IMG/VR virus record: IMGVR_UViG_2778261624_000006
Origin: a virus
Lineage: Duplodnaviria > Heunggongvirae > Uroviricota > Caudoviricetes
Length of the DNA: 35,065 bases
Reading direction: 5' to 3' (one strand)
A model generated the notes under the pieces. The model searched no databases, was not told the DNA's origin, and saw nothing but the letters and a program-made list of their open reading frames with translations. How positions within the stretch are numbered: the stretch's first letter is position 1; every line of letters starts with the position of its first letter. Positions 22,475 to 32,135 of this stretch are shown here, in pieces. The position numbers and the translations under genes were made by a program.

Positions 22475-22994
22475 TCAGCAACCCCGGTATCAGTTCATCC
22501 AGCGCGGCTGCTTTGTTCATGGCTTTGATGATATCCCGTTTCAGGAAATCAACATGTCGGTTTTCCAGTTCCGGAAAACGCCGCTGCACCGACAGGGGGA
22601 TCCCGTCGAGAATACTGGCAATTTCACCTGCGATCCGCGACAGCACGAAAGTACAGAATGCGGTTTCCACCACTTCAGCGGAGTCTCTGGCATTTTTCAG
22701 CTCCTGTGCGTCGGCCTGCGCACGCGTAAGTCGATGGCGTTCGTACTCAATAGTCCCTGGCTGGAGATCTGTCTCGCTGGCCTGCCGCAGTTCTTCAACT
22801 TCCCGGCGCAGCTTTTCGTTCTCAATTTCAGCATCCCTTTCGGCATACCATTTTATGACGGCGGCAGAGTCATAAAGCACCTCATTACCCTTGCCACCGC
22901 CTCGCAGAACGGGCATTCCCTGTTCCTGCCAGTTCTGAATGGTACGGATACTCGCACCGAAAATGTCAGCCAGCTGCTTTTTGTTGACTTCCAT
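22449..22994 (-). CDS. Nu1: terminase small subunit Nu1
   Basis: 181 aa; N-terminal helix-turn-helix; matches lambda Nu1. Confidence 0.95.
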
Positions 22995-22999
22995 TGTTC

Positions 23000-23215
23000 A
23001 TTCCACGGCCAAAAACAGAGAAAGGAAACGACAAAGGCCCAAAAGTTCGTTTTCAGCACCTGTCGTTTCCTTTCTTTTCAGGGGGTATTTTAAATAAAAA
23101 CATTAAGTTACGACGAAGAAGAACGGAAACGCCTTAAACCGGAAAATTTTCATAAATAGCGAAAACCCGCGAGGTCGCCGCCCCGTAACCTGTCGGATCG
23201 CCGGAAAGGACCCGC
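23000..23215 (-). other. cos packaging site (cosB, cosN, cosQ region); 12-nt cohesive-end sequence at about 23172-23183
   Basis: Plus strand reads CCCGCGAGGTCGCCGCCCCGTAACCTG, the reverse complement of the lambda end joint with cohesive end GGGCGGCGACCT; the region up to Nu1 matches the lambda left end. Confidence 0.9.
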
Positions 23216-23383
23216 AAAAATGATAATAATTATCATCTACATGTCACAACGTGCATCTACGCCATCAAACCACGTCAAATAATCAATTATGACGCAGGTA
23301 TCGTATTAATTGATCTGCATCAACTTAACGTAAAAACAACTTCAGACAATACAAATCAGCGACACTGAATACGGGGCAACCTC

Positions 23384-23578
23384 ATGTCAACGAAGAACAG
23401 AACCCGCAGAACAACAACCCGCAACATCCGCTTTCCTAACCAAATGATTGAACAAATTAACATCGCTCTTGAGCAAAAAGGGTCTGGGAATTTCTCAGCC
23501 TGGGTCATTGAAGCCTGCCGTCGGAGACTAACGTCAGAAAAGAGAGCATATACATCAATCCAAAGTGATGATGGATGA
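23384..23578 (+). CDS. small conserved phage protein (64 aa), Arg-rich N-terminus, possible ribbon-helix-helix DNA-binding fold
   Basis: ORF with ATG about 200 bp from cos reading away from it; GGGGCAACCTC immediately upstream as RBS; family uncertain. Confidence 0.6.
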   Translation: MSTKNRTRRTTTRNIRFPNQMIEQINIALEQKGSGNFSAWVIEACRRRLTSEKRAYTSIQSDDG

Positions 23579-23938
23579 ACATCCCGGTTTCTTCCACCAT
23601 CGCACCGGAAAAGCGACTATGAGGGTAACCCTGCGTCTGTCAGCACAGTAAAACCCGGTGTGCATCGTTTTTGATTATTCCCGCACACTCACGCAGAAGG
23701 AATTCCCCGTCGGGCTACGGTCATGGTTAATGCGGGAATACGGCGACGATACAGCGCAGCTAAAAGGGTAATGGACAGATAGAGCGGTTTATTTCATTCC
23801 ACAGGATTCTGAGTGCCCCCCCTCCTCCAATAGGCTGAGCATCCACCTATATAGTTTTAATTTTCATCAATCCATTTAACTATCGTTTAATTGTTGTCAC
23901 ATAGGATTCTGCCGTTTTTAACAATGCAGGATAATAAG

Positions 23939-24232
23939 ATGAAAAAAATGTTGTTTTCTGCCGCTCTGGCAATGCTTATTACAGGATGTGCTCAACAGAC
24001 GTTTACTGTTGGAAACAAACCGACAGCAGTAACACCAAAGGAAACCATCACCCATCATTTCTTCGTTTCGGGAATTGGACAGGAGAAAACTGTTGATGCA
24101 GCCAAAATTTGTGGCGGCGCAGAAAATGTTGTTAAAACAGAAACCCAGCAAACATTCGTAAATGGATTTCTCGGTTTTATTACTTTAGGCATTTATACTC
24201 CGCTGGAAGCGCGTGTGTATTGCTCACAATAA
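23939..24232 (+). CDS. bor: Bor lipoprotein (serum resistance), 97-aa reading from MKKMLF
   Basis: Lipobox LITGC; strong match to lambda Bor as recalled; opposite strand to the lysis genes as in lambda. Confidence 0.9.
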   Translation: MKKMLFSAALAMLITGCAQQTFTVGNKPTAVTPKETITHHFFVSGIGQEKTVDAAKICGGAENVVKTETQQTFVNGFLGFITLGIYTPLEARVYCSQ

Positions 24233-24263
24233 TTGCATGAGTTGCCCATCGATATGGGCAGCT

Positions 24264-24725
24264 CTATCTGCACTGCTCATTAATATACTTCTGGGTTCCT
24301 TCCAGTTGTTTTTGCATAGTGATCAGCCTCTCTCTGAGGGTGAAATAATCCCGTTCAGCGGTGTCTGCCAGTCGGGGGGAGGCTGCATTATCCACGCCGG
24401 AGGCGGTGGTGGCTTCACGCACTGACTGACAGACTGCTTTGATGTGCAACCGACGACGACCAGCGGCAACATCATCACGCAGAGCATCATTTTCAGCTTT
24501 CGCATCAGCTAACTCCTTCGTGTATTTTGCATCGAGCGCAGCAACATCACGCTGACGCATCTGCATGTCAGTAATTGCCGCGTTCGCCAGCTTCAGTTCT
24601 CTGGCATTTTTGTCGCGCTGGGCTTTGTAGGTAATGGCGTTATCACGGTAATGATTAACAGCCCATGACAGGCAGACGATGATGCAGATAACCAGAGCGG
24701 AGATAATCGCGGTTACTCTGTTCAT
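24264..24725 (-). CDS. Rz: i-spanin Rz
   Basis: 153-aa reading from [17 protein letters not shown] matches lambda Rz; N-terminal transmembrane segment and coiled coil. Confidence 0.9.
24323..24505 (-). CDS. Rz1: o-spanin Rz1 lipoprotein, embedded in the +1 frame of Rz
   Basis: 60 aa with lipobox VVVGC and a proline-rich stretch; entirely inside Rz. Confidence 0.9.
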
Positions 24726-25219
24726 TGCTGACCCCACAAACAGATTTCACGCTCAATCTCACGACGAGTCATGAGACCTTTCCATTGCTTACCGCCAGCA
24801 TATGTCCAGCGACGTAGCTGATCACATGCGCCTTTGATATCGCCCTGGTTTATTTTGCGAAGAAGCGTCGATGTTCTGAAATTGCCAGCACCCACGTTGT
24901 AAACGAATGAGTAAAGAGCGCCGCGCATTGTTTCCGGTATATCGACTTTGATGTACGGGTTAATTTGTCTGGCGACCGTGGCAAGGTCTTTATTCAGGAG
25001 GGCTTTGCATTCTGCTTTGGTATACGTTTTACCGAGCATGATGTCTTTTCCTGTATGCCCGTGACATACAGTCCATACACCAACAATATCTTTGTATGGT
25101 ATGTAGCTGACACCTTCCAGACCATCGTTACCACTTGGGCCAGTGATTAACACTGATGCTATAGCAATTGCTCCGCCACCAATAGCAGCAGCAACGGCTT
25201 TTCGTAATGATGGAGGCAT
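24722..25219 (-). CDS. R: SAR endolysin (T4-type lysozyme, glycoside hydrolase family 24; phage 21 R-like)
   Basis: N-terminal Gly/Ala-rich signal-anchor-release segment [20 protein letters not shown]; catalytic E, D and T spacing typical of T4-type lysozyme; ATGA overlap with S. Confidence 0.9.
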
Positions 25220-25434
25220 TATTCACCTCTCGCAGCCTTGCGCTTATCTTCTTTAATCTTGAAATAAAGGTTTGTCAGGTACGTCAGCAGGCCAAATACC
25301 AGGCTACCCAGCACACCTATTGCTGCCCACTGTGAGGGCGTGACTTTATCGAGCAGCTGTAAAAACCAGTAACCGGCACTACCTGCTGAGGTGCCATAGG
25401 CGACACCCGTTGTTAACTTATCCATGGATTTCAT
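25219..25434 (-). CDS. S: pinholin S (phage 21 S-like), dual-start motif MKSMDK
   Basis: 71-aa reading with two transmembrane segments and a basic C-terminus; matches S21 as recalled; ORF track extends further 5' to 25479. Confidence 0.88.
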
Positions 25435-25560
25435 AACCCCACCTCGCAGACAAAGCGGGTGTAAATTGAGGGAATACAACGTATCGCAAAAAAGCAGAAA
25501 CGTAACAGACTCGGAGTCAGTGAATAACTCAGGTATTGGGTTATCAGCTAATATCGAGAC

Positions 25561-25592
25561 TCAAAAAATGGAAAAACCCGCTCGACGGCGGG
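25561..25592 (-). terminator. putative intrinsic terminator upstream of S on the late strand (candidate tR')
   Basis: Hairpin CCCGC-loop-GCGGG followed on the minus strand by TTTTTCCATTTTTT. Confidence 0.45.
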
Positions 25593-26023
25593 TTTAAGCT
25601 GTGTGACGAAGTAACCACTCTTAACAGCATAACCAATTTTTTACGTACGTAAACCACAAAATGATATTTGCGAGAATGCTACCGAGTATTGAAAACACCA
25701 CTACAAATACATAAGCAAATCTCAACAAATAACCAACAAATAATTTCCAGTGTTATTTTTAGCCGATTTAAATTGAACCTTCAAATTACAGAGCACTTAT
25801 AAATAACATCCGTTAATATAAATTGGCTAATAGATTTATTTTTATTCAGCCAAGATCCATGAATAGGATTCGATAGAAAAAAGTTCAGATAAAAATAGAG
25901 ATCTACTTCACAAATCAAACGAGAAACCAAAACTTACATCTTGAAATAATCACATTGATTAGATGAATATTTATCGCGCAGTGACATCATTTTTTAATAA
26001 TAGTTCAAAAAAAAGGGCTCACG

Positions 26024-27106
26024 ATGAAAAAATTAACAGTGGCAATTTCTGCTGTAGCTGCATCAGTACTGATGGCGATGTCTGCTCAGGCAGCTGAAAT
26101 TTATAATAAAGACAGTAACAAGCTGGATCTATATGGGAAAGTTAATGCCAAGCACTACTTCTCCTCTAATGATGCAGATGATGGTGATACTACTTATGCC
26201 CGTCTTGGCTTCAAAGGTGAAACCCAAATCAACGATCAACTGACTGGTTTCGGTCAGTGGGAATATGAATTCAAAGGCAACCGCGCTGAATCTCAAGGCT
26301 CCTCCAAAGACAAAACCCGTCTTGCATTTGCAGGCCTGAAATTCGGGGACTACGGCTCAATCGATTACGGCCGTAACTACGGTGTAGCATATGACATCGG
26401 TGCGTGGACTGACGTTCTGCCAGAATTCGGTGGCGATACCTGGACCCAAACAGATGTGTTCATGACTGGTCGCACCACTGGTGTTGCAACTTATCGTAAC
26501 AACGACTTCTTTGGTCTGGTTGATGGTCTGAACTTTGCTGCTCAGTATCAGGGTAAAAATGACCGCACTGACGTAACTGAAGCTAATGGTGATGGTTTCG
26601 GTTTCTCCACTACTTATGAGTATGAAGGATTCGGTGTAGGTGCAACCTATGCTAAATCTGACCGCACTAATAATCAGGTTATCTACGGTAACAACAGCCT
26701 GAATGCATCTGGTCAAAATGCTGAAGTATGGGCAGCTGGTCTGAAATATGATGCGAACAACATCTATCTGGCTACCACCTATTCTGAAACCCAGAACATG
26801 ACTGTTTTTGGTAATAACCATATTGCCAACAAAGCACAAAACTTCGAAGTAGTTGCACAATATCAGTTCGACTTCGGTCTGCGTCCGTCCGTTGCTTACC
26901 TGCAATCTAAAGGAAAAGACTTGGGTGCGTGGGGTGATCAGGACCTGGTTGAATATATTGATGTAGGTGCAACCTATTACTTCAACAAAAATATGTCCAC
27001 TTTTGTTGATTACAAAATCAACCTGATTGATAAGAGCGATTTCACGAAAGCATCTGGCGTTGCTACCGATGATATCGTTGCTGTAGGTATGGTTTACCAG
27101 TTCTAA
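26024..27106 (+). CDS. nmpC: phage-encoded general porin (OmpC/OmpF family; NmpC/Lc-like)
   Basis: 360 aa; signal peptide ending AQA; 16-strand porin signature with C-terminal YQF; sits between Q and S on the opposite strand as in DLP12 and PA-2. Confidence 0.9.
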
Positions 27107-27243
27107 TTTGATTACTAAAAGATATGTTGCGGGAGGCTTTGCCTCCCCAACATATAAGTGGCTCCCTCAAGCCACTTCCTTTAGGAGCACAACCTTGCTT
27201 CTAACTATATAAACCTTCTGTTATATATTACCCTTTATTTTTG

Positions 27244-27277
27244 GGGGCGTTGCAACGCCCCATTTTTAATAATTTTT
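27244..27277 (+). terminator. rho-independent terminator downstream of the porin gene
   Basis: GGGGCGTTGCAACGCCCC hairpin followed by ATTTTTAATAATTTTT on the plus strand. Confidence 0.6.
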
Positions 27278-27294
27278 AGTAAACAATTGGCATA

Positions 27295-27678
27295 TTAATT
27301 AGAGTTATTAACAACGATATCCATCTCTAACCGGATATCTAATGCCATTAACATCCCTTCAATTATGCCCTCAGCCTTCTGTAACCTTTTCCCGATATAA
27401 CCATCAGAGCAGCAATGCTTACCTGCCAGTGACATGAATGTCATACCGACTACATAATAATCTACTAATAAATCGTGCAAATCGCTGTTGTTCTTTTTCA
27501 GACGGGCCATGCACCCGCAAATAATCATCGCGTCATCGTCACAACATTGCGGGCGAGATTTTACTTTTGAAGTAATTAATCCCTTAAAACCGGCGGCAAT
27601 GGACGACCAGGTCACATCTTCATGATTATTAGCCGCCCACGCTCCCCAACGCTCAAGAACCATCTGAATATCACGCAT
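27295..27678 (-). CDS. quuD: late gene antiterminator Q (phage 82 / QuuD type); ORF track extends to 27693
   Basis: Cys-rich zinc-binding region ([20 protein letters not shown]); position directly before the late region; matches DLP12 QuuD as recalled. Confidence 0.85.
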
Positions 27679-27763
27679 CAACTTACTCCACAAAACTCAG
27701 ACCAGAACGCCAATTACAAGCAAAAATCAACAAAACAGTATTAGTTGATTGTTATCTCTGACT

Positions 27764-27886
27764 TCATACTCCTGCTCCTGTCAGTGTTTTGGCGTAATTC
27801 TTCAGTATTCGGTAATCGGTCAAAACAGAGCCGGGGAAACGATATAAGCGCAGACGCCCCCAGCGGTGGCGAAGAAGTTCTGCCAT
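27764..27886 (-). CDS. small hypothetical ORF (40 aa) between rusA and Q, possibly YlcG-like
   Basis: Hand-translated ORF MAELLRHRWGRLRLYRFPGSVLTDYRILKNYAKTLTGAGV; not in the ORF track because shorter than 60 aa. Confidence 0.3.
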   Translation of the reverse strand: MAELLRHRWGRLRLYRFPGSVLTDYRILKNYAKTLTGAGV

Positions 27887-27900
27887 ATTAAACTCAAACA

Positions 27901-28263
27901 TCATTCATTCCCCATTTCGGTGATGGTCAGTTCCAGCCTCCCACCTTTGGTAACAGGCATCTTCACAACGCGGTAATCAACGACCTGAGCATCATCCAGC
28001 CAGAAACCTGCTTTAGTGAGTGCGTCAAAAGCGGCTTTTTGCAGATTATCCAGGTCACGGCGACGGCGATCCGGCATGTGGCACTCAATGCGGATTTTCA
28101 CAGGCATAGCCAGGCCGATATCCAGCATTGCGTTTTTAATGATTCGGGCGACGTTATCGCGGTATGCCTGCCCCTCTGCGCTGACGTGCGTGCGCCCGCG
28201 ATTATGGCGGTAATAGCGATTATTGCTCGGAGGCCAGGGTAATGTGATGCTGTAGGTATTCAC
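27901..28263 (-). CDS. rusA: Holliday junction resolvase RusA
   Basis: 120 aa; matches E. coli RusA as recalled; nin-region position. Confidence 0.9.
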
Positions 28264-28550
28264 GCCTTAATAACCCCCTCTTTCAGCCAGATAACCTGTG
28301 TTCTCGCCATACCTTCCAGCGCGCATTCTTTTGCATATGCAGCATCGACAAAATGTGTGCGGCGGTCGATTTCGTCGTGGCAGGCAGAACATGCAATGGT
28401 GGCAATCAGGTCTGGCGGTTTGGTACCGGTGCCGCACAATCCAGTCAGCCGGATATGTGCCAGTACAGACGTTTCAGGGTTGCCATTACATACGCCAGGG
28501 ATTCTTACCTGGCATTCCCGACTACGCGCTGCTTTTCTCAAATCAGCCAT
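28260..28550 (-). CDS. ybcO: nin-region protein YbcO (DUF1364, putative nuclease), 96-aa reading from MADLRK
   Basis: Cys-rich motif [14 protein letters not shown]...CSACHDEID; the start overlaps the ninE stop (ATGGCTGA). Confidence 0.8.
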
Positions 28551-28713
28551 GATTCCTCCTTGCTGCCAGTCGCAACCATTTTTTATCAACCAGGCTGGCG
28601 GTATATCCGAGCAGTGTTGGTATTTCGGAAGGCTTCAGCTCCGGTTTACGCTTACGACGATCTGGTACTCTGTAGATGTGTCCGTTCATGACACGAATAA
28701 GCGGTGTAGCCAT
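28543..28713 (-). CDS. ninE: NinE-like small protein (56 aa)
   Basis: Hand-translated: [56 protein letters not shown]; start overlaps the ybcN stop (TAATG); below the ORF track size cut-off. Confidence 0.6.
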   Translation of the reverse strand: MATPLIRVMNGHIYRVPDRRKRKPELKPSEIPTLLGYTASLVDKKWLRLAARRNHG

Positions 28714-29168: not shown

Positions 29169-29266
29169 GCTTCACCTCCGCAGAGGTCAAACGCTGGATA
29201 CAATATATCGCAGGTGCATTTCTGCATCTGTGGAGGGAGAAGAGAGTTTGGATTGTGTGTGCGCAT
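29165..29266 (-). CDS. small hypothetical ORF (33 aa), possibly YlcH-like
   Basis: Hand-translated [33 protein letters not shown]; stop overlaps the ybcN start; very short, so weak. Confidence 0.3.
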
Positions 29267-29355
29267 AAACGTCCCCGTTTAGCGCAGAAGTCACCGGAGT
29301 TGTTCAGGCTCCGATGACATGATTATGGCGAGTTGATTATCGCAAATCAAAGGTT

Positions 29356-29712
29356 TTAATTGTGCTTTATTCCTTCAAGCGTTGCCTTCATACCAACCAA
29401 AGAAATGTTTAGCTCTCCAACTTTCTCAGGGCTATATAATTCAGAATGAAGCCAATATTCTGATTTATCTAAACATCTTTTAGCCAGCTCTCGATCAAAG
29501 TCTACGACTTGGGAAGACGCTTCATACCAAAGCCTATAAAGTTTTTCTTCTTCGTTTGGGTTATTAGGCTCACCACGTTTTAATTTTTCAGTATATAAAA
29601 TTGTTGAATAAATCGCAGGAGTTAATCCAGTGATTGCCCTCTGCCGCAGATCGGATTTGTTTGTTATCCACCCCAACAGACGATCTCCCATCCATGTGAT
29701 AATTGTATCCAT
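29356..29712 (-). CDS. hypothetical protein (118 aa), no family recognised; AT-rich gene
   Basis: Clean ORF with plausible start; no transmembrane segment or signal peptide; no motif I can place. Confidence 0.6.
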   Translation of the reverse strand: MDTIITWMGDRLLGWITNKSDLRQRAITGLTPAIYSTILYTEKLKRGEPNNPNEEEKLYRLWYEASSQVVDFDRELAKRCLDKSEYWLHSELYSPEKVGELNISLVGMKATLEGIKHN

Positions 29713-30173
29713 GCTTTAGCCCTTCTTAGTAAATAGTGTGTAGGGCGACTGAAGGACCGAGTTTATGCTTTTTCGCATTGCTTTCAGTTAGTACACCGGT
29801 ATCGCACCGGAAACAATCCTACGGCAAATTGGTTGTCTGACCTCTCGGTTTTTCGTGCATTAACCGATACCCACTACAGTCTCGGCGAAAGCTGCACACC
29901 CCCAGGGTGTACTGGTAGCACTCGGCACAGCCTAGCACGCCACTTTCTTCTCACTATCCAGTCTAATTTTATCCCCTAGTCAGACACTCAGATGTAGTGC
30001 TCCGCAGCGGCATGCGGGGGAATACAAAAACTCGGACAAAATTGGGCCCTCCTTTTTGAATCACTCGCGGGGATGTAGTTATTAATACATGGAAAAAGAT
30101 CTGTTTTCAAATCCAACATTATATGGTTTCAATACCACGGGGTGGCTATGTGTTTCTCATTGTTAATTGGAAT

Positions 30174-30497
30174 CTACTGTAATCGATCCGAACGTAAATG
30201 CGGCAAAACTCGACTCCACTTATCATCCTGCCACGGCCGGAATTTTACATGTGCCGTTTCTCTGGCAAGGATTGCCTGTGCCTTATTGAGTATCTGGGGA
30301 TATTCTTGCTCGATAGAAGTGAAGCGACCAGCTTCACGATGCTCCGCAACCTGAAGAAGAGGAGTAACGTTCTGGTAGGTAATTAACATCACATTCCCTG
30401 CTCGCCATAACCAGGCGAGTGTGCAAAGTTCGTTATCAGTGAATTGTTTTGTGATTGGGTATTGTTGAACTGCTAGAACGAGAACGCCAGCATCCAT
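30174..30497 (-). CDS. hypothetical protein (107 aa), no family recognised
   Basis: Clean ORF; an extended -10 promoter-like element lies upstream; no recognisable motif. Confidence 0.6.
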   Translation of the reverse strand: MDAGVLVLAVQQYPITKQFTDNELCTLAWLWRAGNVMLITYQNVTPLLQVAEHREAGRFTSIEQEYPQILNKAQAILARETAHVKFRPWQDDKWSRVLPHLRSDRLQ

Positions 30498-30575
30498 TGG
30501 CAGTCTCTATAGTAAAACCATAGCTCAGGACGCTTCGTTCAGGATAGATAATTTTATTGTACTTACCTAACTTTC

Positions 30576-30590
30576 TTATTATAGCACGGT
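30576..30590 (-). promoter_or_regulatory. candidate extended -10 promoter (TGcTATAAT) for the 107-aa gene
   Basis: Minus strand reads GTGCTATAATAAG about 80 nt upstream of the ATG at 30497; no good -35 element. Confidence 0.4.
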
Positions 30591-30608
30591 TGAAAAAGTG
30601 ATTATTAC

Positions 30609-32135
30609 TCAAAAATAAACCTCACCATCAACCATATATTTGAGAGTACTTATCGCCTGCTGGGCGGATATTGTTTTCATTAAAGGATAGTGTTTAAAAA
30701 CAATGCCATTCATAAAATAGATATCACAGGTTTTATTATCTGTATTGATTATGATTTTTTCGAATGTTTTATAGGCAAGTGTACGACATAGCTCTCGCCC
30801 ATTTTTACTGGTTAAGTCAATAGCATGAAAATCACCAAGTGAACTCACCGCTTTACTCTTCAAAGTTTTTAATGATACAGAAGCCCTTCGTAATTCCTTA
30901 TCTAATACTCTGATTTTTTCTGCTATAGCGGTAACTTCAGGCGCAACAGATAATGCAGCAATTAAATTATTAATTTTCATGTGGAGCTCAATAATTTTCA
31001 ACTCTAAAGTTTCATTAGCATCTTTCTTGTTTTCAACTGGTTGGATTTTACTACAATTAAAAAGCAACTCATTAATGATATTATAATCAACCAAATCTCT
31101 CTTTATTGATGGCCTGTCACATCGATGCAGTCTTCTCATCGGACAAACATAATAGCCATGCAAACTTCCAGATACCGCATGAACAATCATGGTATTACCA
31201 CAAGCCTCGCACTTCATAACTGTTCGAAGTAGATTTATCAACATAGGATTTTTGCTACTATTGCTAATACCAAAAGGTGCCAACCGAATTTCCTGTACAG
31301 CGTAAAACAAATCATCTGATATGACTCTGGGATAATAGCCAGCGATTTCACTTATTCCTTTACCTCTTGCACGATATGAAGGTACGCATATACCTATCAG
31401 AGCTTTATTCGCTAATAATTTTTCAATTACAGAAGGTCCCCATGCACTTTCTTTTCCTGAGAAATTCTTTACAGCATGATCATTTAAATACTTGGCTATT
31501 GCATTCAATGAGCGCCTTTCCATCCTGAGTTTAAAAATTAGCTCAATAGTTTTCACCCTGTCGGGGTCTGGAACAAAAGCCGTTCTTTTGTCATCTAAGG
31601 AGAGCCATCTCGGACAAGACGCCGTCATAATCGTACCTGATTCCAGTGCATCCTGCCGTTTTTTCTTCCATGATAATTTAACCCGACTTGACTTTATCTC
31701 GCTTTCTTCATTTGCCCTTTGTGCTATAAGTATGGCTTTTATTAATGAATATGGCTCATTCAAAGAGTCAATATTATAGACTGTATTGTCGCAAAGAGTT
31801 ATAACATCAATACCGTGATTCAAAATCAATTTCAGACGTTCAATCGCTTCACCGACTTTTTCTCTTGAAAGTCTGTCCAGACTTTCAACTAACAATGTAG
31901 TTCCTGGCAATATATAACCATGCTCTATAGCATCTAAAAATTCCGAAAAAGCTCCTGATTGTGCATGCTTTCCTTTGAATGCACTTAATCCTAAATCTTC
32001 ATATGTTATGGTATCAAGATAATAATCACTATTTACCTTTAACCATTCAGCAATAAGTCTTCTCTGTCGGTTTAATGAGTCGCCAGACATCTGACCTGGT
32101 GATGAAAATCGCATATATGCTATGGCTTTTTTCAT
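30609..32135 (-). CDS. ybcK: large serine recombinase (resolvase-type catalytic domain, recombinase domain, zinc ribbon); YbcK-like
   Basis: N-terminal AIAYMRFSSPGQ...R motif of serine recombinases; Cys cluster CEACGNT...YYVCP...C; 508 aa, the typical large-serine-recombinase size. Confidence 0.85.
   Translation of the reverse strand: MKKAIAYMRFSSPGQMSGDSLNRQRRLIAEWLKVNSDYYLDTITYEDLGLSAFKGKHAQSGAFSEFLDAIEHGYILPGTTLLVESLDRLSREKVGEAIERLKLILNHGIDVITLCDNTVYNIDSLNEPYSLIKAILIAQRANEESEIKSSRVKLSWKKKRQDALESGTIMTASCPRWLSLDDKRTAFVPDPDRVKTIELIFKLRMERRSLNAIAKYLNDHAVKNFSGKESAWGPSVIEKLLANKALIGICVPSYRARGKGISEIAGYYPRVISDDLFYAVQEIRLAPFGISNSSKNPMLINLLRTVMKCEACGNTMIVHAVSGSLHGYYVCPMRRLHRCDRPSIKRDLVDYNIINELLFNCSKIQPVENKKDANETLELKIIELHMKINNLIAALSVAPEVTAIAEKIRVLDKELRRASVSLKTLKSKAVSSLGDFHAIDLTSKNGRELCRTLAYKTFEKIIINTDNKTCDIYFMNGIVFKHYPLMKTISAQQAISTLKYMVDGEVYF

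Follow-up and report, generated by a model that had tools for sequence, protein, structure and literature searches.

The stretch of DNA analysed here (35,065 nt, referred to below as the window) carries four lysis genes between positions 24264 and 25434, all on the minus strand: S (25219..25434), R (24722..25219), Rz (24264..24725) and Rz1 (24323..24505). They are tightly packed: the ATG of R overlaps the stop codon of S by 1 nt (TAATG), the start of Rz overlaps the end of R by 4 nt (ATGA), and Rz1 lies wholly within Rz in the +1 frame, its start offset by 220 nt. A first-pass annotation, made from the sequence, had already given exactly this interval for the cassette, and its identification of all four is borne out by Pfam matches and by alignment to reference phages. 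The lysis regions used for comparison, gene by gene, were those of phage 434 (OL657227), lambda (NC_001416), phage 21 (OL657228) and the cryptic prophage DLP12 of Escherichia coli K-12. The PHROGs collection assigned the products of the cassette to holin, endolysin and Rz-like spanin families; in NCBIfam no family was found for S, Rz or Rz1, and the lysozyme matches for R all stayed below threshold. Longer reading frames offered by a mechanical list (starting at TTG, 25479, and GTG, 24737) have no support from any homologue and were set aside.

The same annotation had ascribed to S the dual-start motif MKSMDK of the phage 21 type and to R an N-terminal signal-anchor-release (SAR) segment, had held both to be unlike the holin and transglycosylase of lambda, and had described Rz and Rz1 as close to those of lambda. 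Alignment agrees with it on these points. S matches S21 of phage 21 at 61/71 residues (86%; 165/216 nt, 76%), and R matches R21 at 165/165 (494/498 nt). The SAR segment is present, and neither protein has detectable similarity to its lambda namesake (no alignment at all for S, and no meaningful one for R, with an E value of 3.9). Rz and Rz1, on the other hand, match those of lambda at 152/153 and 59/60 residues.

S opens with ATG AAA TCC ATG GAT AAG (M-K-S-M-D-K; ATG AAA TCC ATG occupies 25434-25423). Translation from Met1 gives a product of 71 aa (25219..25434), and from Met4, whose in-frame ATG is at 25425, one of 68 aa (25219..25425); Lys2 is confined to the longer form. In the phage 434 record, the product matching the 71-aa form is called antiholin, and that matching the 68-aa form is annotated as 'holin class II' ('pinholin class II' in phage 21), and by analogy with these annotations and the literature both starts are probably used in the window, giving an antiholin and an active pinholin, respectively. 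The Pfam family PF04971 ('Bacteriophage P21 holin S') matches residues 5-67 over positions 1-63 of the 64 in the profile (2e-35; 121 bits against a cutoff of 26). The protein is identical to S of phage 434 (71/71), an allele, shared with DLP12, that has been much less studied than S21. The ten changes relative to S21 (I7L, S8T, I11V, W27L, Q30K, S32T, L47F, F49L, R61K and R64K) are all conservative and leave M1-K2-S3-M4 unchanged, the first six residues being the same in the two proteins.

Hydropathy calculation places two transmembrane domains in S. The first (TMD1, residues 8-27) is weakly hydrophobic, with a mean Kyte-Doolittle (KD) value of 0.38 and Gly, Ala, Ser or Thr at 12 of its 20 positions, and the second (TMD2, residues 36-56) has a mean KD value of 1.57; the C-terminal tail is basic (six Lys or Arg, three Asp or Glu). 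The 68-aa product of S21 is known to make small depolarising holes of about 2 nm, from which a cytoplasmic endolysin is not released (PMC9636201; PMC6139136). Given the 86% identity to S21, and given that TMD2 is altered only by L47F and F49L, it seems likely that S of the window would likewise form holes of about 2 nm that depolarise the membrane and are too small for a cytoplasmic endolysin.

Both starts of S are preceded by a Shine-Dalgarno region, read from the sequence as GAGGTGGGG (25437..25445, minus strand), whose GAGG is invariant across the window, phage 21, phage 434 and DLP12; two ribosome-binding sites, side by side, are marked at the matching place before S in the phage 434 record. 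When the RNA of 81 nt around the dual start was folded and compared with shuffled versions, there was no signal of a regulatory stem-loop (z = 0.27 for the window and -1.24 for phage 21), so the control of the ratio of 71-aa to 68-aa product is not to be inferred from the sequence.

R encodes a SAR endolysin of 165 aa, a GH24-type lysozyme by its match to PF00959 (phage lysozyme, 1.3e-45). Besides being the same protein as R21, it is identical over its full length to chain A of PDB 3HDE (annotated 'Lysozyme'), and its residues 27-165 match 3HDF; the structure comparison also brought in 4ZPU, which is the DLP12 protein RrrD. The SAR segment is the hydrophobic stretch at residues 8-27 (seven Ala, four Gly, one Ser and one Thr), with R6 and K7 just before it, and it is followed by the catalytic motif E35-x8-D44-x5-T50, the only match in the protein to the lysozyme motif E-x8-D-x5-T as defined in PMC9239132. 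Release and activation of R21 by depolarisation or by the pinholin is an experimental property (PMC6139136), and complete sequence identity suggests that R of the window would be released by depolarisation in the same way.

The remaining two genes encode the spanins: Rz the inner-membrane subunit, or i-spanin (153 aa; PF03245, 2.6e-54), and Rz1 the lipoprotein, or o-spanin (60 aa; PF06085, 2.9e-20). Rz has an N-terminal transmembrane domain at residues 4-24 (mean KD value 2.4), together with Cys99 and Cys152. In Rz1 the lipobox VVGC fits the pattern [LVI][ASTVI][GAS]C; Cys20 is followed by Thr-Ser, Cys29 is present, and the mature part contains ten prolines. In the lambda spanins Cys99 and Cys152 of Rz and Cys29 of Rz1 form intermolecular disulfides (PMC6139136).

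Upstream of S, the window departs from phage 21 and resembles 434 and DLP12. About 140 nt before S, on the strand of the late genes, there is a terminator-like hairpin recognized by its match to the consensus (25574..25595, minus strand; AAACCCGCCGTCGAGCGGGTTT followed by the T-run TTCCATTTTT), which is present with 100% identity in phage 434 and DLP12. Shortly after it, at about 25475-25490, the window has an insertion of 16 nt (CTGCTTTTTTGCGATA) relative to both. Just upstream of the hairpin (25621-25728, minus strand) is a very hydrophobic reading frame of 35 aa, MLRFAYVFVVVFSILGSILANIILWFTYVKNWLCC, which has no match in Pfam or PHROGs and may be there by chance. No tRNA genes were found upstream of S, unlike the situation in phage 21. 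Instead, an intact porin gene (360 aa; PF00267, 3e-153) lies at 26024-27106 on the plus strand, beyond which is the antiterminator gene Q (PF06530; 27295-27693, minus strand). From the gene order, late transcription would begin downstream of Q and continue through the porin gene to S, R, Rz and Rz1; as the porin gene lies on the opposite strand between Q and S, late transcripts must cross it in the antisense direction, as in 434 and DLP12.

The gene content of the surrounding prophage was checked over the right-hand 23 kb (12000-35065), and the left third consists of large minus-strand reading frames that were taken as tail genes. The minus strand carries head genes, the portal and terminase genes, Nu1, the lysis genes, Q, rusA, ybcO, ybcN, ybcK, ren, P and O, while bor (23939-24232, downstream of Rz and on the opposite strand, as in lambda), a DUF3950 gene and the porin gene are on the plus strand. 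The 23-kb stretch is 97.4% identical to phage Turner, and over 22900-28634 the identity to K-12 is 93-98.6%. Between 22449 and 35065 (minus strand) the genes follow the DLP12 order: ren, an SMR-like gene, ybcK, ..., ybcN, ninE, ybcO, rusA, ylcG, Q, porin, S, R, Rz, bor, ylcI (DUF3950) and Nu1. Here this DLP12-like block is attached to a full lambda-like set of head and tail genes, so that the window has the appearance of a complete DLP12 relative.

Several further features of this prophage may be mentioned. A gene of the nin region, lying between ren and ninB/ybcN, encodes a large serine recombinase of 508 aa (30609-32135, minus strand; Resolvase, Recombinase and Zn-ribbon domains). Its counterpart in DLP12 and in phage PhiR34_1 is YbcK, and what it would do in a lambdoid phage is not evident. 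In the gap between ybcK and ybcN (29200-30600, minus strand), the ybcL and ybcM of DLP12 and PhiR34_1 are replaced in the window, a local module swap that has brought in a protein of 107 aa with a P22 AR C-terminal domain (30174-30497) and a reading frame of 118 aa without a Pfam match (29356-29712). The DUF3950 protein (64 aa; 23384-23578, plus strand) is a homologue of YlcI; its gene lies in the interval from bor to the cos/Nu1 region, an arrangement shared by 434 and DLP12.

Among the reference systems, phage 21 (positions 39866-41036 of OL657228) has the same four genes, with the same overlaps of 1 and 4 nt, the embedded Rz1, the MKSMDK motif and a downstream bor on the opposite strand; it differs in its S allele and in the unrelated region upstream of S, which contains pR' and two tRNA genes and has no porin gene. 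Its record annotates an antipinholin (S21-71), a pinholin class II (S21-68), a SAR endolysin, an i-spanin and an o-spanin (citing PMIDs 2019562, 10361276 and 17900620). Phage 434, whose record reads antiholin, class II holin, SAR endolysin, i-spanin and o-spanin, and DLP12 (essD-rrrD-rzpD-rzoD) share this layout and have, in addition, the S leader with its hairpin, the opposite-strand porin gene between Q and S, and the downstream bor and DUF3950 genes. The differences of phage 434 from the window amount to two residues in R (163/165), six in Rz (147/153) and one in Rz1 (59/60), and its porin gene is interrupted by IS5, as is the corresponding nmpC of DLP12 in K-12. The sequenced 434B stock (OL657227) is in fact 99.0% identical to K-12 DLP12 over 4.1 kb of its late region, the IS5 in the porin gene included, in one colinear alignment, and the record itself flags this late stretch as 'region of 434 nonhomology'; these sequences suggest that the stock may have acquired its late region from a DLP12-like prophage. 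Lambda has the same gene order, a dual start in S, near-identical Rz and Rz1, and 93-100% identity over the 3' three-quarters of bor, but its S, a class I large-hole holin with three transmembrane domains, is unrelated, and so is its R, a cytoplasmic transglycosylase.

We therefore regard 24264-25434, with a confidence of about 95%, as the lysis cassette of a lambdoid prophage that is apparently intact and belongs with DLP12, 434 and phage 21, and we expect it to follow the published pathway of pinholin, SAR endolysin and spanin. The identities of the genes, their architecture and the defining residues can be read directly from the DNA; the mechanism that follows comes from the literature on identical or near-identical proteins (PMC9636201; PMC6139136; PMC9239132). 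S would be translated both from Met1, giving an antiholin of 71 aa with an extra N-terminal Lys, and from Met4, giving the pinholin of 68 aa, and the two forms would build up together in the inner membrane. On triggering, the weakly hydrophobic TMD1 would leave the bilayer, TMD2 would assemble pinholes of about 2 nm, and the proton-motive force would collapse; the pinholin is described as forming about 1000 heptameric channels of this size. R, exported by the Sec system and until then kept inactive by its N-terminal SAR segment, would be released by depolarisation, refold and cut the peptidoglycan, and the Rz/Rz1 complex spanning the periplasm would then fuse the inner and outer membranes.

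Might the cassette instead be a host module? For the essD-rrrD-rzpD/rzoD genes of DLP12, domestication has been proposed, with roles in cell-wall maintenance, biofilm formation and vesicle production, and the window shares with that cryptic prophage the gene order ybcN, ninE through Q, porin, S, R, Rz, bor and ylcI to Nu1; moreover, the 'lysis module' of DLP12 is transcribed and affects the production of outer-membrane vesicles (PMC7918800). Unlike DLP12, however, the window has a full lambda-like set of head, tail, packaging and replication genes, and cassettes identical to it are present in ev207, PhiR34_1 and Turner, whose records were deposited as phage genomes. That the window is an apparently complete relative of DLP12 argues for a role of the cassette in phage release, and we consider domestication unlikely as an account of it, while recognizing that phage-release and host-domesticated roles are not mutually exclusive. 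A decayed cryptic remnant was also rejected as the main reading, as structural and replication genes are present.

A second question concerns the relationship to lambda. The first-pass annotation had seen in the cassette a special mosaic, phage 21-type S and R joined to lambda-type spanins, and this implies a recent hybrid in which an S-R segment of phage 21 was recombined onto the Rz and Rz1 of lambda itself. The onset of lambda homology at the R/Rz boundary is indeed abrupt (at about 24722): in sliding windows of 60 columns, identity to lambda never exceeds 47% upstream of about 24745, and near-identity starts within 24705..24745, where the stop of R meets the start of Rz. From 24704 it is 98-100% across both spanin genes and on into the 3' end of bor, with 93% in two bins to 23985; the homology thus covers the 3' three-quarters of bor and drops near 23990. 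Rz of the window is also marginally nearer to that of lambda than to that of phage 21 (150/153). The same boundary is found, however, in phage 21, phage 434 and DLP12, all of which, like the window, are unrelated to lambda across S and R and then 88-100% identical to it from about 24722. Phage 21 itself carries lambda-type spanins (149/153 for Rz and 59/60 for Rz1), and Rz1 of the window matches that of phage 21 at every one of its 60 residues, one better than lambda's. Differences of just one to three residues between spanins are too few to assign parentage. As phage 21 itself has lambda-type spanins, the combination of a pinholin, a SAR endolysin and Rz/Rz1 is the native layout of phage 21, and there is no separate 'phage 21-type' spanin that lambda's could have displaced. 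Since the boundary is the same in phage 21, 434 and DLP12, the junction between S/R and Rz is old and shared, and is not particular to the element in the window. A fresh hybrid of lambda and phage 21 is therefore rejected as very improbable, the junction being identical in phage 21 itself, and the claim of a special mosaic is left without support: the cassette of the window is the canonical phage 21 cassette. It is scarcely credible, finally, that S is a canonical large-hole holin releasing a cytoplasmic endolysin, as in lambda: nothing speaks specifically for this beyond the fact that holins of both kinds are small dual-start membrane proteins, and S belongs to the S21 family, lacks similarity to lambda S, has two transmembrane domains rather than three, the first of them rich in Gly, Ala, Ser and Thr, and is partnered by an endolysin identical to the Sec-exported R21.

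A different join, absent from the first-pass annotation, can be discerned at the level of alleles. Across the cassette, 89 sites distinguish phage 21 from 434, and the window was scored at each. From 25439 to 25154, a stretch that takes in the whole of S and 65 nt at the start of R, it agrees with 434 at every differing site except two, at which it matches neither; from 25058 to about 24600 it agrees with phage 21 at every differing site, and at the few that remain, in Rz, the pattern is mixed. There is thus a crossover inside R, within 25058..25154, with 434/DLP12-type sequence on the S side and phage 21-type sequence on the Rz side, and this switch to the phage 21 allele accounts for the two residues at which R of the window differs from that of 434. 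By this crossover, which is specific to this copy, S and its leader, of the 434/DLP12 allele, have come to stand beside an R of the phage 21 allele. The exchange is of the fine-scale kind usual among lambdoid phages, and no effect on function is apparent from it. The R protein is still identical to R21. There is only a slight chance that this combination of alleles (S of the 434/DLP12 type with its leader hairpin and the 16-nt insertion, and R of the phage 21 type) alters the timing or expression of lysis relative to phage 21 and DLP12. If it did, holin alleles could be given new endolysin partners through recombination within R, although this would still be variation within a fully understood system.

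How common such cassettes are was judged with a stretch of 1301 bp (24200-25500). This is 100% identical at the nucleotide level to Escherichia phage ev207 (NC_049949) and 99.5-99.9% identical to sequences in PhiR34_1, ev243, Turner and 2G7b; coverage reaches 80% or more in 47 phage records. The same level of coverage is reached in 2678 of the 5426 complete E. coli genomes, many of the copies being 100% identical, and the RefSeq names for these copies are essD, rrrD, rzpD, and iss or bor. With about half of complete E. coli genomes carrying it, the cassette must be considered ordinary. Full-text searches of the literature on lysis in 434, phage 21 and DLP12 together with nmpC, and on Rz21, hy21 or S21R21, brought up nothing relevant. 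The cassette is already known, thoroughly characterized and extremely common, and is not a noteworthy chimera.

For the lysis pathway as such, then, the window adds little, since phage 21 is the system in which it was elucidated, and R here is the same protein as R21. Its practical value lies in correct annotation, the products being antiholin/pinholin, SAR endolysin, i-spanin and o-spanin, and in a caution for those interpreting lambdoid prophages: near-identity of Rz and Rz1 to those of lambda does not signal a new chimera.
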